Source: an uncultured Gammaproteobacteria bacterium (lineage in GTDB: Bacteria; Pseudomonadota; Gammaproteobacteria; Steroidobacterales; Steroidobacteraceae). From it: 64,000 nt of DNA. A program made the translations under genes and the position numbers. Each line of letters opens with the position of its first letter. Within the stretch, counting starts at the first letter, position 1. Shown piece by piece: positions 21,693 to 39,881 of this stretch. The stretch is from the NCBI GenBank assembly GCA_963695985.1, contig CAVOIC010000001.1, positions 33,188 to 97,187 on the forward strand, read 5' to 3'. The notes below the pieces were generated by a model. The model was not told the origin of the DNA. It saw only the letters and a program-made list of their open reading frames with translations, and did no database searches.

Positions 21693-21693
21693 G

Positions 21694-21713
21694 TAGTTTA
21701 TTATATGAAACTA
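21694..21713. promoter_or_regulatory. Inverted repeat TAGTTT-N8-AAACTA in the AT-rich otsB/marR divergent region
   Basis: TAGTTTATTATATGAAACTA lies directly next to the otsB start. A third related half-site (TAGTAAAC) is at 21721-21728. This is a candidate MarR operator. Confidence 0.3.
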
Positions 21714-21793
21714 TTAAAATTAGTAAACCAAATCGCCTGCAGCGTGTAACTGTTGCACGGCAGGTGCGCCAAGCGAGGAAGCCTGACTTGCCA

Positions 21794-22354: not shown

Positions 22355-23131
22355 TTACCGTCTTGCTGCCGCACGTGCGCGGCCGCGTTGCGCGGTCAAT
22401 TCGGAAGTGAGGAGCTTTGCAGATGAGACGATGAGAAGGACGAGACGTCGCTCAAGCATGTCATCGAGCCTGGCGGCGGGTACTACGAGACTCAGGCTCC
22501 CCATGAGCGCGCGCTCCATGACCGAGATGGGCGCAGCGATGCCGACCATCTTCTTATCCACTTCGCCCCGCGTGATCGAATAGCCACGCTTGCGAATGGC
22601 CGCGAGCTCATCGCGAAACTTGCTCACGCTCTTCGGGACGAGGGTCGCATCCGCCGACGCACTGTCGAGGAGCTTGCTGAGACGCCGCGGAGGCAACTGC
22701 GCCAGAATCACCTTCGCAGTAGCACCGCGAGTCAGTGGGCGCGGTCGGCCGCGTTCATAACTGGTGTGCACCCCATCCTCAACTGATGTGTAATCGGCGA
22801 TGCACATCACCCTGTCGTCATAGAGTCTGGATAAGAAGGCCACACACGGCACGCGTGCCTGCACCACCACGTCGCGCAGGAGCGATGTCCCGAACCGATA
22901 CAGCGGATCAGTTTTCCGTACCAGCCGATCAAACTCGATGAAGCACGCCCCAAGGCGGTAACGAGCTGCGGTTGCCGACTCCAGGAAGTCGGTGGCCACC
23001 ATCTCCCTTACCGTGCGATAGACGGTGCTTACGGGCAGCTTGAGCGCGCCCGCCATCTCAGCCACCGACCAGTCAGCGCGCTCCTCGCTGAAGAGGCGTA
23101 GCACCGACACATAGCGACTCAGCCCGCCCAT
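22355..23131 (-). CDS. IclR-family transcriptional regulator
   Basis: From ATG (cat 23129-23131) there is an N-terminal wHTH (WSVAEMAGALKLPVSTVYRTVREM) and a C-terminal IclR effector domain (GYSITRGEVDKKMVGIAAPI). Confidence 0.85.
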   Translation of the reverse strand: MGGLSRYVSVLRLFSEERADWSVAEMAGALKLPVSTVYRTVREMVATDFLESATAARYRLGACFIEFDRLVRKTDPLYRFGTSLLRDVVVQARVPCVAFLSRLYDDRVMCIADYTSVEDGVHTSYERGRPRPLTRGATAKVILAQLPPRRLSKLLDSASADATLVPKSVSKFRDELAAIRKRGYSITRGEVDKKMVGIAAPISVMERALMGSLSLVVPAARLDDMLERRLVLLIVSSAKLLTSELTAQRGRARAAARR

Positions 23132-23141
23132 GACTTGGTGA

Positions 23142-23158
23142 TTATCACAAAGTGATAA
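23142..23158. promoter_or_regulatory. Palindrome TTATCAC-AAA-GTGATAA (candidate IclR operator)
   Basis: There are perfect 7-bp arms, 11 nt upstream of the IclR start. A further TTATCAC half-site is at 23241-23247, near the start of the divergent operon. Confidence 0.45.
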
Positions 23159-23203
23159 AAGAGCCTCAACGAACCTGCGGCAACTACGTATTACCAGATT
23201 ATT

Positions 23204-23218
23204 AGTTTCTGAGAAACT
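23204..23218. promoter_or_regulatory. Palindrome AGTTTC-TGA-GAAACT in the same divergent region
   Basis: There are perfect 6-bp arms in the AT-rich intergenic DNA between iclR and the CoA-transferase operon. Confidence 0.35.
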
Positions 23219-23277
23219 GTGCACATAGGGTTCACGCGCATTATCACAATGCGAGTGCAGAGCTAAGGGGCGCGGGC

Positions 23278-24237
23278 GTGTTCGGCCTGGCGAACCGGGT
23301 TCAGGAGTTCTGTGGGGACTGCGGAGGACACACCTTGGCTGACAAGGTGAAGAGCATTGCCGAGGTCATCCGAACCATCCCCGACGGCGCACATGTTGCC
23401 CTCGGGGGGTTCGCTATTGCCCGAAACGTCATTGCCGCGGTTCATGAGTTGATCCGCCAGGGCAAGCGCAATCTCACGGTGTCGCAGGGTGTCGCGGGTC
23501 TGGACACGGACCTCCTGGTTGGGGCCGGGGCCGTCAGCCGACTCATCATCGGGGGAGGGTCGCTGGACCGCTTCGGCCTGCTCTATTGTGTAAACCGCGC
23601 CCGGGAAGGGAAGACGTTGCGCGCGGAGGATTACACAAGTCTGTCCGTGAGCTTTCGCTATCTCGCCGGCGCGCTGGGTCTTTCCTTCATCCCGATCAAG
23701 TCGCTGCTCAGCTCCGAGATCCTGGAGCGGCTGGAGGCTAACTCCGCCGCTGACGATGTCAAACACATGAAATGCCCCTTCACCGGCGAGGAATACCTGC
23801 TGTTGCGGGCCCTGGTACCGGACGTTTCATTCGTGCACGTTCAGATCGTCGACCGCGACGGCAACGCGCGTATCGACGGTCCGCGTTGGGAAAACGAGGA
23901 ACAGGCGAAGGCCGCACGGCGTATCGTCCTCATCGCCGAGGAAATCGTCTCCACGGAAGAGATACAACGGCAGCCGGAGCGCACAATCATTCCCGGACAT
24001 CGCGTCGACGCCGTCGTACACGAACCCTTCGGGGCCCATCCCACCGCTGTGTTCCGCCGCTACGACTACGACGCCGAGCACTTGCAGCTCTACGTGGCGG
24101 ACTCCAAGCGGGGAGGGATTGAGGAATATCTCAACACGTATGTGTACGGCACGAAGAATCATCGCGACTACCTGGAAAAATGCGGCGGCACGTTACGCCT
24201 GCAGCGGCTGCGGGCTGCGCCGGACCTGGGGTACTGA
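23278..24237 (+). CDS. Class I CoA-transferase subunit A (glutaconate/3-oxoacid CoA-transferase-like)
   Basis: The motif IPDGAHVALGGFAIARNVIAAVHELIRQGKRNLTV is typical of the alpha subunit. The product is 319 aa, and the start may be an in-frame GTG at 23347. Confidence 0.85.
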   Translation: MFGLANRVQEFCGDCGGHTLADKVKSIAEVIRTIPDGAHVALGGFAIARNVIAAVHELIRQGKRNLTVSQGVAGLDTDLLVGAGAVSRLIIGGGSLDRFGLLYCVNRAREGKTLRAEDYTSLSVSFRYLAGALGLSFIPIKSLLSSEILERLEANSAADDVKHMKCPFTGEEYLLLRALVPDVSFVHVQIVDRDGNARIDGPRWENEEQAKAARRIVLIAEEIVSTEEIQRQPERTIIPGHRVDAVVHEPFGAHPTAVFRRYDYDAEHLQLYVADSKRGGIEEYLNTYVYGTKNHRDYLEKCGGTLRLQRLRAAPDLGY

Positions 24238-25004
24238 TGGACGCAGTACGCGCGACGGAAATCATGGCTGCCGCTGGAGCACGCGAGCTTCACGACAGCG
24301 ATACGGTCATTGTTGGACTCGGGCTACCGCAGATTGCCTGTGTCCTCGCCAAGTCAACGCATGCGCCTAATTTGGCAGCGATGCTCGAGATCGGTGTCAT
24401 CAACATGCGGCCGAAGGACACGCCCGTGGGACTTGCCGATTCACGCATCTTCTATCGGGCAACATGCTGGAGCGGCTTCCTCGACATCATGGGCACGAAC
24501 CTGCATCGCGGCGTAGTTGATGTCGGTTTCCTGGGAGCGTTGGAACTCGATCGCTATGGCAACATCAACACCACGCTGCTCAAAGAGGACGGCAAGGTGC
24601 GCTATTTCAATGGCAGCGCCGGTGGAAACGATGTTGCCTCGCTTGCCAAGCGCGTCCTCGTCATCATGCGTCACGAAAGGCGCAAGCTGCGCGCGGCGGT
24701 CGCCCACATTACGAGTCCGGGGTTTGTTGACGGCAAGACGCGCGAGCAGCTGGCACTGCGCGGCGGCGGTCCGCACCGTGTCATCACCGACAAGGCGGTG
24801 ATCGGATTTGGCGTTGAGACCCGTTCCGCGAAACTGATTTCCCTGCATCCGGGTATCAGCCTGGATGACGTTCTGGCGAACACGGAAATGCCGCTGGAGG
24901 TCCCCAAGGACATTCCAGTCACGCCGCTTCCTTCGCGTGACGAACTGCGGCTCTTGCGGGAGGAAATCGATCCCCAGGGTGTGTATCTCGGGAAGTTGAG
25001 CTAA
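24237..25004 (+). CDS. Class I CoA-transferase subunit B
   Basis: The ATG overlaps the subunit A stop (TGATG). The product is ~255 aa with a beta-subunit-like pattern (VIVGLGLPQIA..., FNGSAGGNDVASLAKRVLVIM). Confidence 0.85.
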   Translation: MDAVRATEIMAAAGARELHDSDTVIVGLGLPQIACVLAKSTHAPNLAAMLEIGVINMRPKDTPVGLADSRIFYRATCWSGFLDIMGTNLHRGVVDVGFLGALELDRYGNINTTLLKEDGKVRYFNGSAGGNDVASLAKRVLVIMRHERRKLRAAVAHITSPGFVDGKTREQLALRGGGPHRVITDKAVIGFGVETRSAKLISLHPGISLDDVLANTEMPLEVPKDIPVTPLPSRDELRLLREEIDPQGVYLGKLS

Positions 25005-25027
25005 AGGTCCAGCAGGCGAGGTGCGGC

Positions 25028-26029
25028 ATGATTTGCGACATCGAACTGAATTCCGCTGCGCACTATCCCGTGCGCGATATCGTGGAGCTCTCGCCCCAGA
25101 TCGAAGCTGCGGGCTTCGGCGCGTTCTGGAAAGGCGAATCCAACAGTACCGACCCGCTCGTGCTCCTGTCCGCGATTGCCGCGCGCACCCGGACGCTGAA
25201 GCTCGGCACGGCGATCTATCATATTTATGGCCGCAGCCCGGTCAGCCTCGGCATCCAGTCCGCGACGCTGCAGGACTTGTCGGCAGGACGGCTGCTGCTC
25301 GGCCTCGGTGTTGCCAACAAGACTATCGCCGCCTGGCACAACGGGGTCTTCGATCGTCCCTTGCGCCGCGCCCGCGAATATATCGAGATCGTGAAGAAGG
25401 TGGCCGCAGGCGAGCGCGTCGAATATCAGGGCGAGATCTATTCCACCGGGCAGCGGTTCCAGCTTTCCTGGCACCCCTCGCACCCGACATTCCCAGTCTA
25501 TCTGGCGGGTCTCGGCCCGCAGATGACCAACCTCGTGGGGAAGATCTCTGACGGCGTATTTATCAACATGGCAACGCCCGCGACCATTCGGGCGATTGCG
25601 CAGCGCGTGCGCGATGGAGCGGTCGAAGCCGGTCGCGATCCGTCGAAACTCGAGATCATCGTCAAGGTACGGGTGTCCTTGAACCCGGACCGCGCGAAGG
25701 CGCGCTCGAAGCTGCGCCAGGTCCTCACGTTCTACAACATCGCCGATCACTACAAGGACATGCTCATCGCCTCGGGCTTCGAGCCTGAAGTGACGGCAAT
25801 TCAAGAGGCGTTCAAGGCCGGAGGCTTCAAGGCGGCAGCAACCAAAGTGACGGACGAGTACATGGACAAGCTGCCGGTGATACCCGCGACGTCGATCAAG
25901 GAGGTGAAGGATCGCTTGCAGCCCTTCGTCGAGGCCGGCGCCACGCGCCTCATCGTTCCGTACGTTCCGGTTACCGAACCGGTCATCGAGGATGCGCGGC
26001 GCTTCGTCGAGGCCTGGGGCAAAGCCTGA
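25028..26029 (+). CDS. Luciferase-like monooxygenase (LLM) class oxidoreductase, probably F420-dependent
   Basis: The TIM-barrel LLM pattern is present (FGAFWKGES...LKLGTAIYHIYGRSP...GRLLLGLGV), with Mer-like length. F420 dependence is inferred only from the co-operonic F420 genes. Confidence 0.8.
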   Translation: MICDIELNSAAHYPVRDIVELSPQIEAAGFGAFWKGESNSTDPLVLLSAIAARTRTLKLGTAIYHIYGRSPVSLGIQSATLQDLSAGRLLLGLGVANKTIAAWHNGVFDRPLRRAREYIEIVKKVAAGERVEYQGEIYSTGQRFQLSWHPSHPTFPVYLAGLGPQMTNLVGKISDGVFINMATPATIRAIAQRVRDGAVEAGRDPSKLEIIVKVRVSLNPDRAKARSKLRQVLTFYNIADHYKDMLIASGFEPEVTAIQEAFKAGGFKAAATKVTDEYMDKLPVIPATSIKEVKDRLQPFVEAGATRLIVPYVPVTEPVIEDARRFVEAWGKA

Positions 26030-26079
26030 ACCGGGCTATCTCCCTCGTAAGTTCATCGTGCTCTTAATGGAGTTCAGTC

Positions 26080-27099
26080 ATGTGTGATTTTGCAGCTGAT
26101 GCGCAAGCCGCCGAACAACTCTTGGTCGGCAGGGTGCTCACCGTCAAACGCGTTCGCGAGCTTAATGCCAAGGACTATTTCTACCAGATGCTCAAGGACA
26201 ACCCGGAGATGCTCAAGATCTATCCGGGGATCGAGAACGAGCTCCTCAGAGGTGCCATCGACTGCCACATTCACGCCTACCCCGACTTCGTGCACCGCTC
26301 GCAGAATTTCATCCAGATCGCAATCGATGCCTCGAAAGCGGGCATGCGCGCGCTGGCGTTCAAGGACCATTGGAATGTTTCCGCGAACGCGGCGTATCTG
26401 GCGCAAGAGCACATCGACTATCTGGTGCAGAAGGGAGAGCTGACGCATCGCGTGGAAATCTACGGCGGCGCGGGCACCTGTTTCGGCATCAACCCGGAGG
26501 CGATCCGTGTCGCGCTGCAGTATCCGAACTTCAAGATGATCTGGTTCCCGACCTTTACCTCCTACGGCTTCTGGCGCGGCGCCGGGCATCCGGAGAAAGG
26601 CAAAGTGCGCCTGGTCGACGAAGCCTCCGGCAAAGTACTCCCCGAAGTGATCGAAGTGATGGAAATGGCGGCGGCCAAGCGCGTCGGTATCGGCTTCGGT
26701 CACACCGACTTTCAGGAACTGTTGCCGCTGGCGAAGATGGCGAAGAAAATCGGGGTGCGCGCCACGCTCGATCATCCGCTCCTGGAGCTCAACAAGCTTC
26801 TTCTCGATGAGATGAAGCAGCTCGCCGATCTTGGCATCTATGTCGGCACTTACTGCCAGCCAATGATCCCGAGCCTGTATCAACCTGTTGCTGATCCGAT
26901 GGAGACCATCAGCACGATAAAAGCCATTGGCGCCGAGCGTTGCATCATCGGCTCCGATTTTGGGCAGGTGTTGCATATGGATTCCATCGACGGCATGCGC
27001 GTATTCATCCGCGCGCTGTTGGCCTTCGGCATCAAGGAATCAGAGGTTAAGGTGATGTTGCAGGAGAATCCGGCGAAACTAATGTATTTGGACGCCTGA
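26080..27099 (+). CDS. Amidohydrolase-fold (metal-dependent TIM-barrel hydrolase-like) protein of unknown function
   Basis: An HxH-type motif (IDCHIHAYPDF) is followed later by His/Asp positions (GFGHTDF, LDHP, GSDFGQ). GGAG lies 7 nt upstream of the ATG. The family name is uncertain. Confidence 0.6.
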   Translation: MCDFAADAQAAEQLLVGRVLTVKRVRELNAKDYFYQMLKDNPEMLKIYPGIENELLRGAIDCHIHAYPDFVHRSQNFIQIAIDASKAGMRALAFKDHWNVSANAAYLAQEHIDYLVQKGELTHRVEIYGGAGTCFGINPEAIRVALQYPNFKMIWFPTFTSYGFWRGAGHPEKGKVRLVDEASGKVLPEVIEVMEMAAAKRVGIGFGHTDFQELLPLAKMAKKIGVRATLDHPLLELNKLLLDEMKQLADLGIYVGTYCQPMIPSLYQPVADPMETISTIKAIGAERCIIGSDFGQVLHMDSIDGMRVFIRALLAFGIKESEVKVMLQENPAKLMYLDA

Positions 27100-27108
27100 G
27101 GAGATCGC

Positions 27109-28263
27109 TTGTCGCAACACGAAGACCGTCAGGCCATCCGGGATGCCGTCCGCAGGATCTGCGGCGGCTTTCCAGATACCTATTGGCGCGAAGTCGACCG
27201 TAGTGAGGAATATCCACACGCCTTCGTGAAGGCACTCACTGACAGCGGCTACCTCGCGGCGCTGATTCCGGAGGAATACGAGGGCGCGGGCCTCGGCATG
27301 GTCGAGGCGAGCATCATTCTCGAGGAGATCAACCGCTCCGGGGGCAATGCGCTCGCGTGTCACGCCCAGATGTACACCATGGGCACGCTCCTCAAGCATG
27401 GCAACCCCGAGCAGAAGCGGCGCTACCTTCCCGCGATTGCACGCGGCGAGTTGCGCCTGCAGGCCTTCGCCGTCACCGAGCCGAACGCCGGTTCTGAAAC
27501 GACCAGGATCGAGACCTATGCGGCCCGGAAGGGCGACCGCTACGTCGTCAACGGGCAAAAAATCTTCATCTCGCGCGTCAAGCAATCGGACTTGATGCTG
27601 TTGCTCGCGCGGACTACGCCCTATAACGAGCTAAAGGACAAGACGCAGGGGCTGTCGGTGTTCCTGGTAGACCTCCGGAACATCCAGGGCAAGCTGGAAG
27701 TGCGTCCGCTCGAGATGATGCTCAATCATCACACGAACATGCTCTTTTTCGAGGACGTTGAAATTCCGGCGGAGAATCTGATTGGAGAGGAAGGTAAAGG
27801 CTTTCGGCATATTATTGATGGGTGGAACGCGGAGCGCGTTCTGGTCGCCGCTGAAGCCATCGGCGACGGGCGTTGGTTCGTCGAGCGCGCGTCCAAGTAT
27901 GCGAGCGAACGGGTCGTGTTCGGCCGAAGCATCGGCGCCAATCAGGGCGTGCAGTTTCCCATTGCGCGCGCCTACGCGCACGTCGAAGCGGCCGATCTCA
28001 TGCGTTTGGCCGCGGCGGAAAAGCTCGACCGCAACGAGAAATGCGGAGTCGAAGCCAACATGGCAAAGTTCCTGGCGTCGGAAGCCGCATGGGAGGCCGC
28101 CAACGCATGCCTCGACGCGCATGGCGGTTACGGTTTTGCACGCGAGTATGACGTCGAGCGCAAGTTTCGCGAGACCCGGCTTTACATGACGGCGCCGGTG
28201 GCCAATAACCTGGTGCTGGCGTTTCTCGGCCAGAACGTCCTCGGCATGCCGAAATCCTACTAG
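27109..28263 (+). CDS. Acyl-CoA dehydrogenase family protein
   Basis: The start is TTG after GAGGAG. ACAD three-domain patterns are present (AFAVTEPNAGSE, GQKIFISR, and the C-terminal ...GGYGFAREYDVERKFRETRL with the catalytic Glu region). Confidence 0.9.
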   Translation: MSQHEDRQAIRDAVRRICGGFPDTYWREVDRSEEYPHAFVKALTDSGYLAALIPEEYEGAGLGMVEASIILEEINRSGGNALACHAQMYTMGTLLKHGNPEQKRRYLPAIARGELRLQAFAVTEPNAGSETTRIETYAARKGDRYVVNGQKIFISRVKQSDLMLLLARTTPYNELKDKTQGLSVFLVDLRNIQGKLEVRPLEMMLNHHTNMLFFEDVEIPAENLIGEEGKGFRHIIDGWNAERVLVAAEAIGDGRWFVERASKYASERVVFGRSIGANQGVQFPIARAYAHVEAADLMRLAAAEKLDRNEKCGVEANMAKFLASEAAWEAANACLDAHGGYGFAREYDVERKFRETRLYMTAPVANNLVLAFLGQNVLGMPKSY

Positions 28264-29201
28264 TGGGCGTTACTAAAGATATGGATCAGCAATCTGGACT
28301 CCTGCGCTCCTGGATGTTCGTTCCAGGCGACAAGCAACGAATGCTCGAGAAGGCGCTCGGACTGCACGTCGACTCGATCATGATGGATATCGAGGACGGC
28401 GTTGCTCCGGCCGAGAAGGAAAACGCGCGCCGTCAGATCGCCGTTACATTGAATTCCACCGCGGCGCGACTCGGGAGCGATCCGGCGCTGAAGACTCCGG
28501 CTCGCTACGTACGTGTCAATGCCGTTGGTTCCGAGCGGATGCGGGATGATCTCGGGGCCGTCGTGGTGCCGGGGCTCGAGGGCCTGGTGATTCCCAAAGT
28601 CGAGACGTCCGAACAGATCGCCATCGTCGAGGGCATCCTGGGACGCCGCGAAGTCGAAGCCAAGGTGCCGGGAGGATCCGTGCGCCTGCTCGTCGCCATC
28701 GAGAGTCCCGTCGGTCTCTTCAACGCCTACAGCATCGCTTCATCTTCTCGGCGCATCGTCGGTCTTATCTTCGGTGCTGAAGATTTCTGCCGCGAGATGG
28801 GACTTCCCTTGCGGCGCGAAGCCGAAGCGAGCGATCTCACCTATGCGCGCTCCCATATTGCTACGGCTGCCGCCGCGGCCCACGTGCAAGCGGTTGATGG
28901 CGTGTGGACGGATCTGAAGGATACCGAGGGCATGCGCCGACACGCGCTTCAGGCCCGACGGCTGGGTATGTCGGGTATTTCCATTATTCATCCGAGCCAA
29001 ATCGACGCGGCCAACGCGGCGTTTACGCCGACGCGGGAGGAATTGGAATACGCCGCCGAAGTGCTGCAAGCGTTCGAGGCGGCCCGGGCGCGGGGCGACG
29101 GCGCCATCGCCTTGCGCGGGCAACTGCTTGACTATCCAATCGTCGATCGGGCACGCCAGACAGTAGCGCTGGGCAAGTCGCTGGGCGTCCCCGGGGCATG
29201 A
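28263..29201 (+). CDS. HpcH/HpaI aldolase / CitE-like acyl-CoA lyase (citramalyl-/malyl-CoA lyase family)
   Basis: RSWMFVPGDKQRMLEKAL..DSIMMDIEDGV plus the ...FGAEDF... motif are typical of CitE-like lyases. The start is either GTG 28263 or ATG 28282. Confidence 0.85.
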   Translation: MGVTKDMDQQSGLLRSWMFVPGDKQRMLEKALGLHVDSIMMDIEDGVAPAEKENARRQIAVTLNSTAARLGSDPALKTPARYVRVNAVGSERMRDDLGAVVVPGLEGLVIPKVETSEQIAIVEGILGRREVEAKVPGGSVRLLVAIESPVGLFNAYSIASSSRRIVGLIFGAEDFCREMGLPLRREAEASDLTYARSHIATAAAAAHVQAVDGVWTDLKDTEGMRRHALQARRLGMSGISIIHPSQIDAANAAFTPTREELEYAAEVLQAFEAARARGDGAIALRGQLLDYPIVDRARQTVALGKSLGVPGA

Positions 29202-29222
29202 CGTCTGACGGAGGAACCTCAA

Positions 29223-29723
29223 ATGGCCGTGAAACCAGGTTGGGAGGGGCGGTACTTCGAGGATTTCGAAGTGGGCGACATTTATCGCTGCCGTCTGGGG
29301 CGCACGCTGACCGATGCAGACAACATTTGGTTTACGCTACTCACCAATAACACCAATCAAATTCATTTCAACACCGAATACGCCAAACGTACGGACTATG
29401 GCCGGCCGCTGATCAACAGCGCGCTCACGCTCGCCATCGTCGCCGGGATGGGCGTCGCCGACGTGAGCGAGAACGGCTTTGCACTCGGCTGGGACCAAAT
29501 CGAGCTGCCCAACCCCCTGTTCGCCGGCGACACGCTTTATTCGGAATCGGAAGTCCTGGAGAAGCGCGAGTCCAAGTCCAAGCCGCAATTGGGCATCGTG
29601 AAGGTGCGCACGCGCGGCATTCAGCAGGAGGGCAAAGTCGTCATCAGATACGCGCGCAGTGTGATGGTGTGGAAGCGCGCCTATGCGCCGAACAAGAATC
29701 TCTTCCCCGAGGTCAAGTCGTGA
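29223..29723 (+). CDS. MaoC-family (R)-specific enoyl-CoA hydratase/dehydratase (itaconyl-/mesaconyl-CoA hydratase-like)
   Basis: The 166-aa hot-dog fold protein contains FEDFEVGD..., DNIWFTLLTNNTNQIHFN. Confidence 0.85.
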   Translation: MAVKPGWEGRYFEDFEVGDIYRCRLGRTLTDADNIWFTLLTNNTNQIHFNTEYAKRTDYGRPLINSALTLAIVAGMGVADVSENGFALGWDQIELPNPLFAGDTLYSESEVLEKRESKSKPQLGIVKVRTRGIQQEGKVVIRYARSVMVWKRAYAPNKNLFPEVKS

Positions 29724-30922
29724 CGACCGACGCTCCGGCGAGCCGCTCCGCGCTCACCGGCGTGCGCGTGCTGGCGCTGGAAACGTCTTTGTCAGGCCCG
29801 CATTGCACCAAGCTGCTCGCCGACCTGGGGGCGGAGGTGATCAAGATCGAGAGGCCGGGCGTCGGCGATGTTGTGCGCGGCTGGGACTCTGCCGTCAGGG
29901 GTCTCTCCTCAGGCTATATCTTTGCCAATGGCAATAAGAGGAGTCTTGGCGTCGACGTGAAGACGACGGCCGGCGCTGCTGCCGTCAAGTCGTTGGCCGA
30001 GCGCGTGGATGTCTTCCTCGAAAACTTCTCTCCGGGGGTGGCGCAGCGGCTGGGCCTTGGTCACGAGAAGCTTTGCAAGGCCAACCCACGCCTCATCTAC
30101 TGCTCGATTTCGGGTTATGGGCAAGACGGCCCGTACCGCGATGTGAAGGCGTACGACCTGCTCATCCAGGGGGAGGCCGGAATGATCGCGACCACCGGCT
30201 ATCCCGACAAACCAGCGAAAGTCGGCGTTTCGATCACTGACCTCACCTCATCGATGTATGCGGCGGTGGGAATTCTTGGCGCACTCTACGAGCGCGAAAA
30301 GACAGGGCGGGGTCAGGTCGTCGACATCTCGATGTTCGAATCGGCCGTGTCGTGGCTTGGCTACTTTCCACACCACTACTGGCACAAGGGCGAAGAGCCT
30401 CAGCGGGTCGGTTTGCGCCATCATTACATCACGCCGTATGGGCCGTATCTCGCGGCGGATGGCAAGTACGTCAATCTCGCCGTGGCCACGGAGTCCGACT
30501 GGGAGGCTTTCTGCCGCCAAGTGATCGAGCGGGCGGACTTGCTCGAAGAATCCCGTTTTGGTTCGCCCGAGCTGCGACGCAAGAATCGAACTGAGCTGGA
30601 GGAGCTGATCGAGAGTATCTTCCTCAAACGGGGCCATGAAGAATGGCTGCGCAGGCTCGCCAATGCGCGTTTGCCTCATGGCCGTGTCAACGGGATCGCC
30701 GAAGTGCTGGACCATCCTCAGATCTCCGCGCGCCATTTCATCCGCCAAGTGAATTCACCTGTGGGACCCATACCCATCGTCTCGAGCCCACTGCGCCTCT
30801 CCGATAGCGCACAGCCTTCGGGCCGAGTTCCCGCGCTGGGGGAAGACACCGAACCGTTGTTGCACGAATTAGGCTACACGGATGCCGATATCGCTCAGTT
30901 CCGACGCGACAGCGTGATCTAG
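29720..30922 (+). CDS. Family III (CaiB/BaiF) CoA-transferase
   Basis: The GTG start overlaps the MaoC stop (GTGA). LTGVRVLALE...GPHCTKLLADLGAEVIKIERPGVGD and ...ISGYGQDGPYRD are typical of the family. Confidence 0.9.
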   Translation: MTTDAPASRSALTGVRVLALETSLSGPHCTKLLADLGAEVIKIERPGVGDVVRGWDSAVRGLSSGYIFANGNKRSLGVDVKTTAGAAAVKSLAERVDVFLENFSPGVAQRLGLGHEKLCKANPRLIYCSISGYGQDGPYRDVKAYDLLIQGEAGMIATTGYPDKPAKVGVSITDLTSSMYAAVGILGALYEREKTGRGQVVDISMFESAVSWLGYFPHHYWHKGEEPQRVGLRHHYITPYGPYLAADGKYVNLAVATESDWEAFCRQVIERADLLEESRFGSPELRRKNRTELEELIESIFLKRGHEEWLRRLANARLPHGRVNGIAEVLDHPQISARHFIRQVNSPVGPIPIVSSPLRLSDSAQPSGRVPALGEDTEPLLHELGYTDADIAQFRRDSVI

Positions 30923-30931
30923 GAACGCTCG

Positions 30932-31600
30932 ATGGCTGAGCCGCCGCGGAAAATCGCGATCATCGGCGCCACTGGCGAGCTCGGCGGCGCGCTCGCCCGG
31001 CGGCTCGTGAAGGCTGGCGAAAGCGTCATCATCGGTTCACGCGACGCGGCGCGGGCACAGGCTGTTGCCTCGGCGCTCGAGAACGAGACGCGGCGTCGAG
31101 TGGCAGCCGGGTCAAACGCAGACGCCGCTGCCGCCGCGGACCTCGTGATCGTCACGGTGCCGTTTGCAGCGCAGAAAGCGACACTGCGCGAGATCGCGGC
31201 ACACGTGTCCGGCAAGATCGTGGTCGATACGACCGTGCCGCTCGTGCCGCCCAAGGTCATGCGCGTACAGCTTCCCGCGGAGGGAAGCGCAGCACAGATT
31301 GCTTCCGGCTTGCTCGGTGCAGGCACACGGGTTGTATCCGCATTCCATAACGTGGCTGCGCACAAGCTCGCCACCGACGAGAAGATCGATTGCGACGTGC
31401 TGGTGTTTGGCGATGACCCCCAGGCGCGCGATGCCGTGATTCGCATCGCCGAGTCCTGCGGACTGCGCGCCTTGCACGCCGGCCCGCTCGCCAACTCGGC
31501 AGCAGCCGAGGCGCTGACGTCGGTCCTGATATTCATGAACAAGCGGTATGCTGTCGATGGCGCAGCCATCCGCATCACGGGCGCTCTAAGCCCAGGTTGA
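30932..31600 (+). CDS. npdG: NADPH-dependent F420 reductase
   Basis: KIAIIGATGELGGALARRLVKAGESVIIGSRD has a Rossmann start. The ~222-aa length is characteristic of Fno/NpdG. The gene starts 9 nt after the preceding CDS. Confidence 0.85.
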   Translation: MAEPPRKIAIIGATGELGGALARRLVKAGESVIIGSRDAARAQAVASALENETRRRVAAGSNADAAAAADLVIVTVPFAAQKATLREIAAHVSGKIVVDTTVPLVPPKVMRVQLPAEGSAAQIASGLLGAGTRVVSAFHNVAAHKLATDEKIDCDVLVFGDDPQARDAVIRIAESCGLRALHAGPLANSAAAEALTSVLIFMNKRYAVDGAAIRITGALSPG

Positions 31601-31651
31601 CTCGATGAACCTCGAATCGACAGCTGTGCCCGCTCCAGCCCGGAGACCTTC

Positions 31652-34549
31652 GTGAGGGTTTGTGCGATCGTCGCGGCGCGCTCGCGGGGTGCCAAGAGCC
31701 GACTCGCGCCCGTGCTTTCGCCGGACGGCCGTGCTGCGCTCGCCCGCTCGATGCTGACCCAGGTTCTTCGTTCGGTGAGAGCCGCGCGCGGTATCGATCA
31801 CATCATGCTCGTGACGACGGATGAAGAAGGGCCGGTGCCCGCTGGCGTTGAGGTGGTTCGCGACGCGGGCATGGGTCAGTCTGCGGCTGTCGCGACCGGA
31901 CTTGCGCACGTCGCCGACACGGCCGACGCAGCGATCGTACTCGCCGCTGATACGCCGAACACTTCGCCGCAGGAGATTGAGCACTTGATCGCGGCCTTGG
32001 CGGACCGCGATGTCATCGTCGCCCCCGACCGGCGCGGCGAGGGCACGAATGCACTGGGGCTGCGTCTTCCCGCGCGCATTCAACTGCAATTCGGTGGACC
32101 GAGCCTGACGGCACATCTGCGCTCGGCCGAGGAGCTGGGCGCCCGGACGGCGATCATCGAGTTGCCTGGCTTGGCTCACGACATCGACCTGCCAGAGGAT
32201 CTCGTGGATGAGCCGTTGCCGCGCGAATCCGCCCTGCGGTTGGTGGAGGAGGGCGATCTTACAACCATGATGGAGCGGGCCTCGGCGTTGGCCTTGCAGG
32301 GCTTTGGCCAGCGGGTCGGCTATTCGCGCAAGGTCTTCATCCCACTCACCCAGCTCTGCCGCGATGTCTGCCATTACTGCACCTTCGCCGGCCCGGCGCC
32401 GAGACACGCACGAGCTTTTCTGACACCGGAGGAAGTGCTCAGCTTGGCGCGGGCGGGTGTGAACGCCGGCTGCACCGAAGCGCTCTTCACCTTGGGAGAC
32501 AAGCCCGAGCTGCGTTACGCGTCCGCGCGCGATGAGCTCAGAAGTCTCGGTTTCGCGACGACCCTCGAATATCTCACGCATTGCGCGCGCCTCGTGTTCG
32601 AGCACACGGGATTGCTGCCACACTTGAATCCGGGTGTCATGCAGCACGCCGATTTCGCAGCCCTGCGGCCCGTGTCGGCCTCGATGGGTATCATGCTGGA
32701 GACGAGCGCAACGCGGCTCATGGAACCAGGGATGCCGCATCACCGCTCGCCCGACAAGCATCCGACGATGCGCATCGCGACGCTGCGCGCCGCCGGGGAA
32801 GCGGCCGTGCCATTCACGACGGGTCTGTTGGTCGGAATCGGTGAAACACGGGCTGAGCGCATTGAGACGCTGCTCGCCATTCGTGAGCTGCACGAGGAGT
32901 TCGGCCACATCCAGGAACTGATCATCCAGAATTTCCGTGCTAAGCCCGGTACGCGGATGGCACGCTACCCCGAACCGCCACTCGAAGAGCTCCTCTGGAC
33001 GATAGCCGCCGCGCGCCTCCTGTTCGGTCCATCGATGTCGATACAGGTTCCGCCCAACCTGAGCCCCACGCACCTGCCAGCACTGATCAGCGCGGGTCTC
33101 AATGACTGGGGCGGCGTATCACCGGTTACGCCGGATCATGTGAATCCGGAAGCGCCTTGGCCCGACATCACCGCGCTCGAGCGCGAAACACGGGCCGCGG
33201 GGCGCTGGCTCGTGCAACGGCTGCCGATCGTGCCTTCCTTCGCAATCGATGGCGAGAGATGGCTCGACCCGGCACTTCGCACCGCGGTGCTGCGCCGGAT
33301 CGATGCGCAGGGCTATGTCCGCGAGGACGCTTGGACAGCAGGTTCCGGATCACTGCCACCCACGCGTTACGGCCGGCTGCTGGACAGAAAGTCGGAACGC
33401 GCCCCCGCGTCCCGCTCGTTGCGGGCCGTGCTCGAACGTGTTCGAGAAGGCAAGCCGCCGGACGAACAGCATATCGCGCAACTCTTCGCATCGGATGGCG
33501 CTGATTTCACGGCAGTCGTGCAACACGCTGACGCCTTACGCGAGGAGACAGTTGGCGATGCTGTCAGTTATGTGGTGAATCGGAACATCAATTACACCAA
33601 TATCTGCAGCTACTCCTGCGGCTTCTGCGCGTTCGCCAAGGGTCGTAGCGCCAAGGCGCTGCGCGGACCGGGCTACAACTTCGACCTTGACGAGATCGAA
33701 CGGCGAGTTGCCGAGGCCGCGGACCGTGGCGCGACCGAGGTTTGCCTGCAGGGTGGCATCCACCCACGCTACACGGGCCAAACGTACCTGCAGATCGTCG
33801 GGGCGGCCAAGGGCGCCGCCCCTGGTATCCACGTGCACGCGTTCTCGCCACTCGAGATCTCTCATGGCGCTGCCACTCTGGGCTTGTCATTGGCCGAATA
33901 CTTGTTGCGCCTGAAGGAGGCGGGCTTGAGCACACTGCCGGGCACCGCCGCCGAAATTCTCTGCGACGACGTGCGTGCGGTGATCTGCCCGGACAAACTG
34001 AGTTCCGCCGAATGGCTTCAGGTCATGCGCACGGCGCACGACATCGGGATCCGCAGCACCGCAACCATCATGTTCGGGCATGTCGAGCGGCCCGTGCACT
34101 GGGCCAGGCACCTGCTGGCGATCCGCAGCCTGCAGGAGGAAACCGGCGGCTTCACGGAATTTGTGCCGTTACCGTTCGTGCACATGGAGGCGCCCTTGTG
34201 GCGATCCGGCCGTGCCCGGTCCGGGCCGAGCTTCCGCGAGGCGATACTGATGCACGCGATCTCCCGAATCGTGCTGTATCCGCTGTTCCCGAACATTCAG
34301 ACTTCATGGGTCAAGATGGGCCGGCAGGGTGCGCTCGCGGCGCTCGCCGCCGGGGCTAACGATCTGGGTGGCGTGTTGATGGACGAGTCGATCACGCGCG
34401 CCGCGGGTGGCGTCAACGGCCAGCAATTGGATTCAAAAGACATGCAGGCCGCGATCCGTTCGATCGGTCGCTCGCCGCGCCAGCGGACGACACTCTATAA
34501 AGATGCTTCTCGACCGACACGGATATTCGCCGAAGCCGCTGCGGGCTGA
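31652..34549 (+). CDS. fbiC: Triple fusion: CofC/FbiD-like guanylyltransferase + FO synthase CofG + CofH (FbiC)
   Basis: The N-terminal ~195 aa are CofC-like (AIVAARSRGAKSRL..., APDRRGEGTNALGL...QFGGPS). Two radical-SAM CxxxCxxC motifs follow, CRDVCHYC (32357-32380) and CSYSCGFC (33605-33628). It is a single 965-codon ORF with a GTG start after GGAG. Confidence 0.9.
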   Translation: MRVCAIVAARSRGAKSRLAPVLSPDGRAALARSMLTQVLRSVRAARGIDHIMLVTTDEEGPVPAGVEVVRDAGMGQSAAVATGLAHVADTADAAIVLAADTPNTSPQEIEHLIAALADRDVIVAPDRRGEGTNALGLRLPARIQLQFGGPSLTAHLRSAEELGARTAIIELPGLAHDIDLPEDLVDEPLPRESALRLVEEGDLTTMMERASALALQGFGQRVGYSRKVFIPLTQLCRDVCHYCTFAGPAPRHARAFLTPEEVLSLARAGVNAGCTEALFTLGDKPELRYASARDELRSLGFATTLEYLTHCARLVFEHTGLLPHLNPGVMQHADFAALRPVSASMGIMLETSATRLMEPGMPHHRSPDKHPTMRIATLRAAGEAAVPFTTGLLVGIGETRAERIETLLAIRELHEEFGHIQELIIQNFRAKPGTRMARYPEPPLEELLWTIAAARLLFGPSMSIQVPPNLSPTHLPALISAGLNDWGGVSPVTPDHVNPEAPWPDITALERETRAAGRWLVQRLPIVPSFAIDGERWLDPALRTAVLRRIDAQGYVREDAWTAGSGSLPPTRYGRLLDRKSERAPASRSLRAVLERVREGKPPDEQHIAQLFASDGADFTAVVQHADALREETVGDAVSYVVNRNINYTNICSYSCGFCAFAKGRSAKALRGPGYNFDLDEIERRVAEAADRGATEVCLQGGIHPRYTGQTYLQIVGAAKGAAPGIHVHAFSPLEISHGAATLGLSLAEYLLRLKEAGLSTLPGTAAEILCDDVRAVICPDKLSSAEWLQVMRTAHDIGIRSTATIMFGHVERPVHWARHLLAIRSLQEETGGFTEFVPLPFVHMEAPLWRSGRARSGPSFREAILMHAISRIVLYPLFPNIQTSWVKMGRQGALAALAAGANDLGGVLMDESITRAAGGVNGQQLDSKDMQAAIRSIGRSPRQRTTLYKDASRPTRIFAEAAAG

Positions 34550-34572
34550 TCGGTGTTGGAAGCTGATCGTCC

Positions 34573-35358
34573 GTGGGCCGCGGTATGCGTACTGACAGTG
34601 AACGGTTGAGCATCACGGTTACGGGAATTTCGGATCTCGACGAGATCCGCCCGAGGGATGATCTGGGTTCTCTCCTGGCCGCAGCCCTCGGCCGGCTGAC
34701 TGTGCGTGTTCGCGCCCACGATATTCTCGTCGTAGCGCAGAAGATCGTCTCCAAGGCGGAAGACCGGTTTGTCGATCTCGGCACGGTCGAAGTATCGGAG
34801 CGCGCCCTGGAGCTCGCCGCAGTGACGCACAAGGATCCGCGCCTGGTCGAGCTGGTTCTCTCGGAATCGACCGAAGTATTGCGTGCCAAGCCCAACGTCC
34901 TGATCGTGCGGCATCGACTCGGCTTCGTCATGGCCAATGCCGGTATCGATCGCTCGAATGTTGGTGGCCGTGATCGCGCTTTGCTCCTGCCGCGGGATCC
35001 GGATGCGTCCGCCGCAATGCTCCGCACCTCTCTCGAGGCTCGTCTCGGCATTGCCATCGGGATCGTGGTGGCGGACAGCTTCGGTCGCGCGTGGCGCAAC
35101 GGCGTCACGAATGTCGCGCTCGGGGCCGCGGGGCTCCCCGCCCTGATCGACCGCCGGGGCGAGCTCGATCGCAACGGCCGAACACTCGAGGTTACGGAGA
35201 TCGCGTTCGCTGATCTGGTCGCATCGGCTGCCGGGCTCGTCATCGGTGAAGCGGCGGAGAGCTGCCCCGCGGCGCTGGTACAAGGCCTGTCCTGGCACGC
35301 GCCAAGCGTGCCTGCGAGCGCGCTTATTCGCCCGCTATCAGAAGATATGTTTCGATGA
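34573..35358 (+). CDS. cofE: Coenzyme F420-0:L-glutamate ligase (CofE only, no FbiB C-terminal nitroreductase domain)
   Basis: DILVVAQKIVSKAEDRFVDL...LIVRHRLGFVMANAGIDRSNV is the CofE signature. The product is 261 aa. An alternative ATG start lies at 34585. Confidence 0.9.
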   Translation: MGRGMRTDSERLSITVTGISDLDEIRPRDDLGSLLAAALGRLTVRVRAHDILVVAQKIVSKAEDRFVDLGTVEVSERALELAAVTHKDPRLVELVLSESTEVLRAKPNVLIVRHRLGFVMANAGIDRSNVGGRDRALLLPRDPDASAAMLRTSLEARLGIAIGIVVADSFGRAWRNGVTNVALGAAGLPALIDRRGELDRNGRTLEVTEIAFADLVASAAGLVIGEAAESCPAALVQGLSWHAPSVPASALIRPLSEDMFR

Positions 35359-35368
35359 GCCCACAGGC

Positions 35369-36322
35369 ATGAGTGAAGGTTCTGTCGTGGTGCTCACTGG
35401 CGGGATTGGGGGTGCCAAACTCTGCCTCGGGCTGCAGCGCGTGCTCACGTCCCGCTCCTTGTCGGTGATCGTCAATACCGCAGATGATTTCGAGCATCTT
35501 GGCCTGCGGATTTCGCCGGATGTGGACACGACGCTCTACACGTTGGCAGGTCTCGCAAACCCGGATCTCGGTTGGGGCCGGTGCGACGAGACCTGGACCT
35601 TCATGCGCGTGCTCGAGACGCTCGGGGGCGAGACCTGGTTCAGATTGGGCGACGGTGATCTTGCCCTGCACGTCGAACGCACCCGCCGGCTTGCAGCGGG
35701 CGAGAGCTTGAGTACGTTCACCGCCGATGTTGCCCGGCGTTTCGGCGTCAGGACGCGCATCCTGCCGATGAGCGACGATAGCGTGCGCACGATCGTGACG
35801 ACGCCCGCGGGGGAGCTCAGCTTTCAGGAGTACTTTGTGCGCGCGCGCTGCCTTCCTGTGGTCGGCCGCTTGCACTTTGCGGGCGTCGATGACGCGCGCG
35901 TTCCACCGGGCATCAACCAGGTGCTGCGCGACGCAGAACTGCGCGCCATCGTGATCGCGCCATCCAATCCGTATCTCAGCATCGATCCCATCCTTGCGCT
36001 TCCAGGCATGCGCACAGCGCTGCGAGCCGCCGGCGTACCGATCATTGCGGTTACACCCATTGTCGGCGACGTCGCCATCAAGGGTCCGACCGCGAAGATC
36101 ATGACAGAGCTCGGGCTCAGTCCCTCGCCGCTCACCGTGGCCGAACACTATGACGGTTTGCTCGATGGCTTTGTGCTCGACGAACGCGATGCGCGATTCG
36201 CCACGCGCCTCAACGTGCCCGCTCGGATGTGCGACACACTCATGTTGACGCTCGAGGACCGTGAGCGTGTCGCGCGCTGCGTACTGGAACTCGCCGCTAC
36301 GGCGCACCCGCGACGCGCGTAG
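35369..36322 (+). CDS. cofD: 2-phospho-L-lactate transferase (LPPG:FO transferase)
   Basis: From ATG 35369 the sequence reads VVVLTGGIGGAKLCLGL...IVNTADDFEHLGLRISPDVDT..Y.LAG...GWG..DETW, the classical CofD N-terminus. Confidence 0.9.
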   Translation: MSEGSVVVLTGGIGGAKLCLGLQRVLTSRSLSVIVNTADDFEHLGLRISPDVDTTLYTLAGLANPDLGWGRCDETWTFMRVLETLGGETWFRLGDGDLALHVERTRRLAAGESLSTFTADVARRFGVRTRILPMSDDSVRTIVTTPAGELSFQEYFVRARCLPVVGRLHFAGVDDARVPPGINQVLRDAELRAIVIAPSNPYLSIDPILALPGMRTALRAAGVPIIAVTPIVGDVAIKGPTAKIMTELGLSPSPLTVAEHYDGLLDGFVLDERDARFATRLNVPARMCDTLMLTLEDRERVARCVLELAATAHPRRA

Positions 36323-39814: not shown

Positions 39815-39881
39815 GCACGCGCCGTATGCCCCAACCCTTGTTCAAAATCAACCTTGTCGCCGGGAAACTCCGATCAGAGCT

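Follow-up and report, generated by a model that had tools for sequence, protein, structure and literature searches.

Coenzyme F420 is made by some Proteobacteria and Chloroflexi, and in a 2021 review (PMC8498797) the reason why is given as an open question, no F420-dependent enzyme from outside the Actinobacteria having been studied experimentally. Genes for the cofactor have already been found beside a possible user in cultured Proteobacteria. For example, cofC, cofD, cofE, fbiC and npdG are clustered with a putative F420-dependent client of the luciferase-like monooxygenase (LLM) superfamily on the plasmids pl2WSM5005 of Paraburkholderia sprentiae and pSA2 of Novosphingobium resinovorum. Here we describe another such setting in a 64,000-nucleotide stretch of DNA from an uncultured soil gammaproteobacterium of the Steroidobacteraceae (GenBank assembly GCA_963695985.1, contig CAVOIC010000001.1, positions 33,188 to 97,187; hereafter the window, whose own coordinates are used throughout), where one cluster at 22355–36322 joins an LLM gene, genes for acyl-CoA metabolism and a predicted complete set of F420 genes. 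A sequence-only reading of this DNA had called the physiological roles of F420 in Proteobacteria largely undefined, and the review bears this out. Since cof and fno genes together with some LLM are present on plasmids of cultured Proteobacteria, the joining of an F420 island to a client is as such known; absent from those plasmids are the LLM family of the window, its DUF6282 or other hydrolase partner and the C5-dicarboxylyl-CoA module. The plasmid FbiC proteins are 62–64% identical to that of the window, but the plasmid client LLMs belong to other subfamilies, their CofC is unfused and they have no genes for the GctAB-like CoA-transferase, the DUF6282 protein, the acyl-CoA dehydrogenase (acd), the CitE-like lyase (citE), the MaoC hydratase (maoC) or the family III CoA-transferase (ct3) described below.

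In Pseudomonas aeruginosa and Cupriavidus necator, the genes for itaconate/methylsuccinate degradation (ict, ich, ccl, an acyl-CoA dehydrogenase (ACAD) gene and an MmgE/PrpD isomerase gene; PMC12290011) form the closest described counterpart of the catabolic genes. This cluster has four enzyme families in common with the window, namely family III CoA-transferase, MaoC hydratase, CitE-type lyase and ACAD, and in it, similarly, a C5-dicarboxylyl-CoA is hydrated and then cleaved. In contrast, the window has no MmgE/PrpD, its proteins stay below the Ich and Ccl thresholds, and it adds a GctAB-like CoA-transferase, an F420-type LLM, an amidohydrolase-fold protein and adjoining F420 biosynthesis. 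On a Burkholderia plasmid (L092), a cluster of the RipB/RipC type has an acetyl-CoA hydrolase/transferase-family protein, not a family III CoA-transferase. The Yersinia rip operon is reportedly of that same type. More distant parallels come from other pathways. In the 3-oxoadipate pathway, dienelactone hydrolase, maleylacetate reductase and PcaIJ operate under PcaR, and in mycobacteria an F420H2-dependent FDOR reduces α,β-unsaturated lactones. By analogy, the window cluster may share with these routes a hydrolase plus a reductase, a two-subunit class I CoA-transferase, an IclR-type regulator and F420H2 as donor to conjugated lactones; it differs in having an LLM in place of an iron-dependent alcohol dehydrogenase or FDOR, a hydrolase of another family, and an ACAD, a hydratase and a lyase in place of a thiolase. 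Two-component FMN-dependent LLM systems (SsuD and SsuE) are also comparable in that an NAD(P)H reductase charges a diffusible (deaza)flavin that a co-encoded LLM consumes, whereas the cofactor in the window is a deazaflavin, an obligate hydride carrier without oxygen activation, whose synthesis is encoded as well.

The window cluster consists of a divergent IclR-family gene and twelve plus-strand genes in the order gctA, gctB, LLM, DUF6282, ACAD, CitE-like, MaoC, family III CoA-transferase, fno, cofC-cofG-cofH, cofE and cofD. Protein families were assigned with Pfam and NCBIfam profiles and scored against the curated NCBIfam cut-offs. With moderate confidence, we propose that this cluster is a self-contained cofactor-plus-client catabolic unit, in which F420H2-dependent reduction by the LLM would feed a C5-dicarboxylyl-CoA route. 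Fno would charge F420 with hydride from NADPH, and the LLM, with Glu6 as general acid, would pass the hydride of F420H2 to an activated double bond in a precursor of a small dicarboxylic acid. This bond would most likely be a C=C conjugated to a carboxyl, lactone or thioester carbonyl. The precursor would have five to six carbons, would probably be branched, and could exist as the free acid, as a lactone or as a CoA ester. Where present, the DUF6282 protein or an α/β-hydrolase would open the ring or ester, and the two CoA-transferases would esterify the resulting saturated dicarboxylate with CoA. The ACAD would then re-oxidise the CoA ester to a 2-enoyl-CoA (of the methylsuccinyl- to mesaconyl-CoA type), which the MaoC protein would hydrate and the CitE-type lyase would cleave. 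This cleavage would release an acyl-CoA together with a 2-oxo- or aldehyde acid, as acetyl-CoA with pyruvate or as propionyl-CoA with glyoxylate. The IclR protein may control the operon from the divergent promoter region.

The LLM (25028–26029, plus strand, as are all genes of the cluster except iclR; Pfam Bac_luciferase), also termed a luciferase-like hydride transferase (LLHT), is central to this proposal. The sequence-only reading had left its placing among F420- and FMN-dependent families as a check to be made, and profile, sequence and structure comparisons now all support placing it in the F420 clade and not with the FMN enzymes. F420 LLMs made up all of the 14 best NCBIfam families (199 to 59 bits; TIGR04024 199, Rv3520c-type 161, Mer 156), the first FMN family following at 57 bits, and the best match by sequence in the PDB was Mer (6e-34, about 26% identity), followed by Fgd, hydroxymycolate dehydrogenase (fHMAD) and Adf. 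Similarly, Foldseek with the AlphaFold model returned F420 enzymes at ranks 1–30 (Mer, FGD, Adf and FGD2; Mer with a template modelling (TM) score of 0.71) and FMN enzymes from rank 31. Mer (PDB 8qpl, 1z69) is thus the closest solved relative. Residues were compared by alignment to Methanocaldococcus jannaschii Mer (jMer) and with a mutational study (PMC11094777). The invariant Glu6 stands at the end of predicted β1, where jMer has its catalytic Glu6; the family-invariant pair Ala62-Ile63 aligns with Gly61-Val62, the cis-peptide backstop under F420 in jMer (a position taken from sequence only); and Asn180 falls on jMer residue 178, where β6 ends in a carboxamide residue. The pair Ala62-Ile63 would keep the small plus β-branched character of the backstop, a non-prolyl cis-peptide that follows β3 and has a moderate hydrophobic residue, and kMer has Ile at this position. 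Judged by these residues, the LLM is Mer-like in predicted cofactor handling and probably also in acid catalysis. It is, however, not Mer itself by its equivalog scores and its pterin-contact and Asp-His residues, and its context is CoA-ester metabolism, not C1 metabolism. The LLM also forms a narrow and isolated family as far as its relatives by sequence indicate: at 50% clustering the orthogroup gave one full-length representative (72% identity), the next relatives being 49, 44, 43, 41 and 39% identical, and no close relative (>35% identity) was found among the plasmids in PLSDB. Two other roles for the enzyme were considered and rejected. A biosynthetic role as dehydro-F420-0 reductase is ruled out by about 45 loci that have the LLM with CoA-handling genes and without cof genes, and a Baeyer-Villiger-type oxygenase forming a lactone was rejected on its chemistry, which also conflicts with placement in the F420 clade. 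We know of no deazaflavin that activates O2.

The cofactor supply follows directly on the catabolic genes and consists of fno/npdG, encoding NADPH:F420 oxidoreductase (30932–31600; TIGR01915 184 bits, cut-off 150), a CofC-CofG-CofH triple fusion combining guanylyltransferase and FO synthase (31652–34549; 965 aa), cofE, encoding F420:glutamate ligase (34573–35358; TIGR01916 243 bits, cut-off 181; 261 aa), and cofD, encoding 2-phospho-L-lactate transferase (35369–36322; TIGR01819 294 bits, cut-off 257; refined start ATG 35369 in an open reading frame (ORF) that opens at 35246). All three domains of the fusion scored over their cut-offs, CofC at residues 5–185 (TIGR03552, 145 bits versus 105), CofG at 224–546 (TIGR03550, 480 versus 213) and CofH at 605–950 (TIGR03551, 538 versus 374), as did the fused protein with the FbiC model NF006687 (1086 versus 1018). 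CofC, CofG, CofH, CofD, CofE and Fno are hence all present over curated cut-offs, in agreement with the sequence-only reading, which had claimed a complete biosynthesis and reductase set. CofE carries the F420_ligase domain only, and no FMN-reductase domain (the C-terminal nitroreductase of FbiB, dehydro-F420-0 reductase) was found on it, which points to the 2-phospholactate or the 3-phosphoglycerate route or to a reductase encoded elsewhere. Dehydro-F420-0 reductase is needed where phosphoenolpyruvate is the CofC substrate, and for the 2-phospholactate or 3-phosphoglycerate routes the predicted gene set is complete. Fusions of CofC to CofG, about 440–610 aa long and in many cases incomplete, were found in Steroidobacteraceae, Hyphomicrobiales, Lysobacterales and other proteobacterial metagenome-assembled genomes (MAGs) and in Pseudohalioglobus lutimaris. 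The 2021 review mentions only the CofG-CofH (FbiC) fusion.

A search for the LLM in species-representative genomes, from which the 80 best genome matches were taken and the window proteins mapped onto 83 loci (with a neighbourhood defined as within 10 kb), showed how regularly the client and the cofactor genes occur together. The LLM was found at 75–96% identity in the 80 genomes, which span at least six phylum-level lineages (its carriers being Steroidobacteraceae, many Acidobacteriota, Binatia, 'Deltaproteobacteria', Alpha- and Betaproteobacteria, Dormibacterota, Verrucomicrobiia and Chloroflexota). The gene set itself recurs in dozens of these genomes, which speaks against a chance grouping. 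The closest genomes are two MAGs of Steroidobacteraceae or uncultured Gammaproteobacteria (L004 and L005) with the same gene order and proteins 83–98% identical. In 23 other species-level loci, from Acidobacteriota, Dormibacterota and Alpha-, Beta- and Gammaproteobacteria, the LLM and the acd, citE, maoC and ct3 genes lie with fno and cof genes no more than 10 kb away, in four arrangements. In the window type, all genes run in one direction and cofC, cofG and cofH form a single fused gene. In Acidobacteriota and one Dormibacterota MAG, the F420 genes bracket the catabolic operon, with fno (minus strand) and cofE (plus strand) upstream of iclR and cofC-cofD-cofH-cofG (minus strand) downstream, while in alpha- and betaproteobacterial MAGs fno (minus), cofE (plus) and cofC/D/H/G (minus) all lie downstream. 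In a Bryobacteraceae MAG, cofG-cofH-fno-cofD-cofC-cofE immediately precede the LLM gene and share its strand. Fno is present in every locus that combines the LLM, acyl-CoA and F420 genes. Across lineages, the catabolic proteins are 56–89% identical to those of the window and the F420 proteins 29–55% identical and unfused; because the two modules differ in evolutionary depth yet repeatedly adjoin, functional coupling is suggested, not inherited synteny. The sequence-only reading had further proposed that the cofactor is made on demand from the same transcript as the pathway. This is plausible for the window but does not hold generally, as most F420 genes lie on the opposite strand in the Acidobacteriota and the alpha- and betaproteobacterial loci.

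Were the adjacency fortuitous, or the LLM an FMN-dependent enzyme, there would be no functional link between the catabolic and the F420 genes. Some LLM loci do have no F420 genes within 10 kb, and the LLM falls below the cut-off of every curated F420 family. However, the adjacency of the two gene groups in 23 species, which show four independent arrangements and represent five or more lineages at phylum or class level, nearest families and structures that are all F420 enzymes, and the second LLM of the Binatia-type loci described below, with its score at an F420 cut-off, make an absence of any link highly improbable.

The LLM is the constant element of all variants and forms their invariant core. 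It precedes acd-citE-maoC-ct3 in at least 30 loci, in seven of them directly with nothing between, and these seven acidobacterial loci consist of iclR and LLM-acd-citE-maoC-ct3 without gctAB and DUF6282, which are gained and lost together and form an optional sub-module. Conversely, gctAB, the LLM and a hydrolase stand alone in four loci (L011, L013, L032 and L041). Other settings also occur. In three betaproteobacterial MAGs (L003:5220-11005, L012 and L034), an LLM 85–87% identical to that of the window ends an operon with Amidohydro_2, acyl-CoA ligase and B12-dependent acyl-CoA mutase genes; the mutase there has large and B12-binding subunits of the methylmalonyl-CoA-mutase family, and a thiamine pyrophosphate enzyme and a molybdenum (Mo) hydroxylase are encoded nearby. 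In another group of loci, the LLM lies between a MaoC hydratase and DUF6282, beside an ILVD_EDD dehydratase. The common denominator of these settings is CoA-ester chemistry plus, usually, a hydrolase. The Binatia-type loci hold a ct3-like gene and a second LLM at the TIGR03619 F420 cut-off (166.2 versus 166.9), and in one variant (L038, L057, L061, L065 and L070) the genes encode a family III CoA-transferase, a BNR/Sortilin-like protein, the second LLM, two M24 creatinase-like proteins, the LLM and DUF6282, ending in a major facilitator superfamily transporter or a dihydrodipicolinate synthase (DHDPS)-like gene, with tartronate-semialdehyde-reductase-like and IlvD-like genes nearby. Upstream of fno in several acidobacterial and Dormibacterota loci (L007, L009, L010, L023 and L028) are genes for a three-subunit Mo-hydroxylase (2Fe-2S, molybdenum cofactor and FAD subunits), accompanied by a GntR regulator, an acyl-CoA ligase, a crotonase and another α/β-hydrolase beside the F420/LLM cluster. 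This set presumably resembles the furoyl-CoA dehydrogenase (hmf) genes. A furoate- or N-heterocycle-type pathway is only a lead, as the window and many of the loci have no such Mo-hydroxylase, ligase and crotonase genes.

Directly after the LLM lies the gene for the DUF6282 protein (26080–27099; Pfam DUF6282, 130 bits), predicted to be an amidohydrolase-superfamily (β/α)8 metal hydrolase and a candidate lactonase or ring hydrolase. Its AlphaFold2 model (predicted local distance difference test (pLDDT) score 82) matched in Foldseek the renal-dipeptidase-like 2i5g, LigI (4dia), the COG3618 lactonase 4dlf and GkaP, and matches at E ≤1e-3 were mostly amidohydrolases (TM 0.45–0.52). The invariant residues are H63, H65, D96, H97, H208, H232 and D293, which include the amidohydrolase pattern of HxH after β1, His after β5 and β6 and Asp after β8 (strands from the model), so that the invariant His and Asp would occupy canonical metal-ligand-type positions in the modelled fold. 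In cultured Alphaproteobacteria, distant relatives (about 30% identity) adjoin genes for HpcH/citrate-lyase-like aldolases, tricarboxylate transporters, PrpD and class I fumarase, which points to organic-acid metabolism. No mention of DUF6282 was found in the literature searched, and the cluster provides a first functional context for this family. In six loci (L011, L013, L018, L027, L037 at 11340-12233, and L067), an α/β-hydrolase takes the position right after the LLM and is, by its placing, a putative non-orthologous replacement of DUF6282; its only NCBIfam match is the UilS N-acyl-homoserine-lactonase family (149 bits, cut-off 400). As a hydrolase with a lactonase-like match replaces DUF6282, we propose that F420H2-dependent reduction may be coupled to ring or ester hydrolysis.

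The direction of the LLM reaction may be judged from the families that it resembles: it scored 142–199 bits with Mer-type families versus 51–61 with the FGD/Adf dehydrogenase group, following the split of F420 LLM families into reductases and dehydrogenases (PMC6279831). The reductive direction is favoured for the predicted enzyme because the similarity to the Mer branch is higher, Fno is constant, and a lone F420-reducing enzyme that fed only NADP+ would be pointless, gaining nothing over an NADP-dependent dehydrogenase. Precedent for F420H2-dependent reduction of a conjugated C=C bond within the LLM family is provided by LxmJ. The main rival, a lactol dehydrogenase plus lactonase, turns the reaction round: the LLM would be an F420-reducing dehydrogenase that forms a lactone by oxidising a lactol, a hemiacetal or a secondary alcohol, the DUF6282 protein or α/β-hydrolase would be the lactonase that pulls the reaction, Fno would pass the hydride to NADP+, and the acid would enter the CoA module. 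FGD acting on glucose-6-phosphate and LigC acting on 4-carboxy-2-hydroxymuconate semialdehyde (CHMS) are models for such a step, and Fno can run in either direction, as can Mer and FGD, which are Class I F420 enzymes. The pairing of a dehydrogenase with a lactonase is classical, the fold neighbours of DUF6282 include LigI and COG3618 sugar lactonases, the replacing α/β-hydrolase has its weak lactonase-family match, and recurrent neighbours in other loci (ILVD_EDD dehydratase, DHDPS-like protein, fumarylacetoacetate (FAA) hydrolase and glucose-methanol-choline (GMC) dehydrogenases) would fit oxidative sugar-acid routes. In addition to the scores and the redox argument above, however, the LLM has no His aligning with Mer Asp35-His36, whose His we take to stand at the position of the catalytic base of FGD and Adf, and seven complete loci have no hydrolase, so that we consider this reversed direction unlikely. 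F420H2-dependent reduction of unsaturated lactones is reportedly carried out by the FDOR family. The claim of the sequence-only reading that an F420H2-dependent LLM step was recruited into an acyl-CoA pathway thus gains from the conserved link between LLM, acyl-CoA and F420 genes in the 23 loci, while its reductive direction is only favoured.

The acyl-CoA module begins upstream of the LLM with a two-subunit class I CoA-transferase of glutaconate-CoA-transferase type, as predicted from its α subunit (gctA-like, 23335–24237; Pfam CoA_trans; 1POI_A, E 3e-44) and β subunit (gctB-like, 24237–25004; Pfam CoA_trans; 1POI_B, E 1e-37). The nearest solved relative of both subunits is the glutaconate CoA-transferase of Acidaminococcus, and the catalytic Glu is retained in the GctB-like subunit, where 'MLEIG' aligns with 'IVESG' of GctB. 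This CoA-transferase had been noted as an extra relative to the itaconate genes in the sequence-only reading and can now be specified as glutaconate-CoA-transferase-like. An AibAB-type decarboxylase and an IpdAB-type ring hydrolase, whose structures were matched as well, were considered for the pair and rejected, as GctAB is far closer (1e-37 to 3e-44 versus 1e-11 to 1e-30) and its catalytic Glu is conserved here. The ACAD (27109–28263; three ACAD Pfam domains) classes by its profiles as a generic member of its family; its best NCBIfam matches were AcrC (242 bits) and the non-decarboxylating glutaryl-CoA dehydrogenase of Desulfococcus (226 bits), both under their cut-offs. Where other ACADs have their canonical catalytic Glu, in the YEG motif near the C terminus, the alignment shows Pro, and a Glu is present in helix G ('NAER'), which we take from the IVD and MCAD structures to be the position used by isovaleryl-CoA and long-chain ACADs; the catalytic Glu hence appears to be at the IVD-type position. 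The CitE/HpcH-type β-hydroxyacyl-CoA lyase (28263–29201; Pfam HpcH_HpaI, 176 bits) has as its nearest structures human CLYBL (5vxc, a citramalyl-CoA lyase; 3e-36) and malyl-CoA lyases. The MaoC-type (R)-enoyl-CoA hydratase (29223–29723; Pfam MC_hydratase and MaoC) is similar to Ich and mesaconyl-CoA hydratase, its best structural match being 8hgn, a β-methylmalyl-CoA dehydratase (mesaconyl-CoA hydratase; E 3e-33). The last member, a family III CoA-transferase (29720–30922; Pfam CoA_transf_3, 382 bits; its ORF opening at 29669), had as its best NCBIfam match succinate-glutarate CoA-transferase (269 bits, cut-off 750) and matched Frc-like proteins, YfdE and SUGCT in the PDB, being nearest to glutarate, oxalate and mesaconate transferases. 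The C5-dicarboxylate character that we propose for the module is based on the retained GctAB Glu, on the nearest relatives of the MaoC, CitE-like and family III proteins, and on the occurrence of the LLM with acyl-CoA ligase and B12-dependent mutase genes.

The sequence-only reading had held that these genes mirror ict/ich/ccl. The enzyme families agree, but the equivalogs do not: the MaoC protein scored 186 bits against RipB/Ich (NF038241, cut-off 340) and the CitE-like protein 157 bits against RipC/Ccl (NF038242, cut-off 375). As the Ich and Ccl cut-offs are missed, the module is classed as working like the itaconate set, not as a member of it. It may nevertheless be asked whether these are orthodox itaconate/methylsuccinate (ict-ich-ccl-acd) genes, with the LLM, DUF6282 and gctAB serving an unrelated substrate and the F420 islands merely collecting F420 enzymes. 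The families match those of the Pseudomonas/Cupriavidus cluster, whose ACAD is methylsuccinyl-CoA dehydrogenase (PMC12290011), the MaoC protein is 55% identical to an NCBI-annotated RipB/Ich, and F420 genes adjoin other, unrelated LLMs on proteobacterial plasmids. This explanation is nevertheless very unlikely: besides the missed equivalogs, the CitE-like protein shares only 31% identity with the RipC-like protein encoded at L092 on the Burkholderia plasmid, the cluster has no MmgE/PrpD isomerase, and the LLM is found only with CoA-handling genes, heading the acd-citE-maoC-ct3 series as described above.

Another reading has a linear C5 substrate (glutarate, glutaconate or 2-hydroxyglutarate) instead of a branched one. 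The GctAB-like and SUGCT-like proteins would make glutaryl- or glutaconyl-CoA, the ACAD would be a non-decarboxylating glutaryl-CoA dehydrogenase, the MaoC protein and lyase would lead to acetyl-CoA and malonate semialdehyde, and the substrate reduced by the LLM would be glutaconate or a precursor of the oxo or lactone kind. The glutaconate CoA-transferase as nearest solved relative of GctAB, the succinate-glutarate match of the family III protein and the second-best match of the ACAD would all fit. However, the supporting scores are far under their cut-offs and barely apart from the alternatives, and the MaoC and CitE-like proteins are closest to branched-C5 enzymes (acting on mesaconyl-, itaconyl- and citramalyl-CoA). 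We know of no CitE-type lyase that cleaves 3-hydroxyglutaryl-CoA, which also counts against a linear substrate, and we regard one as quite unlikely.

Returning to the proposed cofactor-plus-client unit with a probably branched substrate, several observations weigh against it. All 80 best genome matches are MAGs. The LLM scores are far below the curated cut-offs (TIGR04024 199 bits versus 345, NF002619 for Mer 156 versus 276, and TIGR03555 142 versus 349), and the LLM model has a pLDDT of 70 overall with a poor N-terminal half, so that statements about residues follow from sequence alignment. At the residue level, Asn97 stands where jMer has Asp96, a pterin contact, Gly-Glu replaces Asp35-His36, and the His of Fgd and Adf is missing. 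The seven loci without gctAB and DUF6282 indicate that the hydrolase is not obligatory for the LLM reaction. In addition, the acyl-CoA module occurs without F420 genes within 10 kb in five loci (L018, L030, L036, L039 and L073), and about 35 Binatia-type loci have the LLM and DUF6282 without ACAD, MaoC or CitE-like genes and without F420 genes within that distance. Reduction followed by re-oxidation would also be wasteful for itaconate itself, as Ich could hydrate it directly.

The LLM and DUF6282 proteins are 75–98% identical among Gammaproteobacteria, Acidobacteriota, Binatia, Dormibacterota, Verrucomicrobiia and Chloroflexota, compared with 29–55% for the F420 proteins, which suggests recent horizontal spread of, or extreme constraint on, the catabolic core. 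We tentatively consider that the LLM may catalyse an unrecognised F420H2-dependent reductive step in the catabolism of small unsaturated dicarboxylic acids or of their lactones, usually partnered with DUF6282 or an α/β-hydrolase. The step would be encoded on a horizontally mobile module spread among Acidobacteriota, Binatia, Dormibacterota and Proteobacteria, which in several lineages became welded to a full F420 biosynthesis set; we regard this as possible, although short of probable. If so, this pathway would be a main reason for F420 synthesis in these Gram-negative soil bacteria, and if the LLM is reductive, F420H2-dependent ene- or lactone-reduction would be added to central carbon catabolism. 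One specific and strongly conserved predicted F420 client is named and set among CoA esters of small dicarboxylic acids, which provides a concrete and testable job for F420 in Gram-negative soil bacteria, and the association recurs in abundant uncultured lineages of soil and groundwater. In the literature searched, this combination was not found described, nor was any link reported between F420 and itaconate, glutaconate or mesaconyl-CoA, Acidobacteriota cof genes or an LLHT-lactonase pair.

The layout of the cluster was refined by setting gene starts from homologue alignments and ribosome-binding sites. All twelve ORFs were recovered where the sequence-only reading had placed them, and its description of twelve plus-strand genes that overlap or are separated by 51 nt or less agrees with the refined gaps of -4 to 51 nt (in gene order -1, 23, 50, 9, -1 to 17, 21, -4, 9, 51, 23 and 10 nt). 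The gctA ORF opens at 23278, its refined start being TTG 23335, with GGAGG 8 nt upstream, conserved in L004 and L005; gctB starts at ATG 24237, overlapping the gctA stop by 1 nt, and the family III CoA-transferase gene at GTG 29720, overlapping the MaoC gene by 4 nt. On the plus strand inside the cluster, no sigma-70-like or terminator-like motif was found above shuffled expectation. With genes on one strand, short gaps and no internal terminator or promoter, the cluster has the features of a predicted operon. The divergent gene (22355–23224, minus strand; Pfam HTH_IclR and IclR_C) encodes an IclR-family regulator whose best NCBIfam match is PcaR/PcaU (59 bits, under its cut-off), and a homologous gene occupies the same position in 19 related loci. 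The 110-nt spacer between iclR and gctA (23225–23334) contains an AT-rich stretch conserved with L004 and L005 and a 10-nt inverted repeat at 23233–23257, and is likely a divergent promoter/operator, a function suggested by these features. The iclR gene and the conserved AT-rich spacer mark the 5' boundary of the cluster.

The flanks are unrelated, with trehalose genes upstream and exonuclease and 2-oxoacid dehydrogenase E1 genes downstream. Directly upstream and convergent with iclR (17693–22318) are genes for a GT20 OtsA-like protein, a trehalose phosphatase, a GH15 trehalase-like protein and a MarR-type regulator, whose domain lies at about 21947–22111. No tRNA gene, sought as a sign of a mobile-element boundary, was found in the window. 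The GC content is 0.608 in the catabolic part, 0.650 in the F420 part and 0.633 in the whole window; the values at third codon positions (GC3) are similar between the parts, and GC content was therefore not decisive as a test of foreign origin. At 38195–39895 and 42631–45573, four sizeable ORFs (288, 261, 523 and 447 aa) matched nothing in Pfam at E ≤1e-3; the sequence is high in GC, and some of the four may not be genes. A 2-oxoacid dehydrogenase E1-alpha gene lies at 40398–41426, 4 kb past cofD on the operon strand, whereas in L004 (positions 1-977) it abuts iclR on the opposite strand. The proteins are about 92% identical, and this difference in placing indicates that the 14-kb cluster differs in position or orientation between the two genomes.

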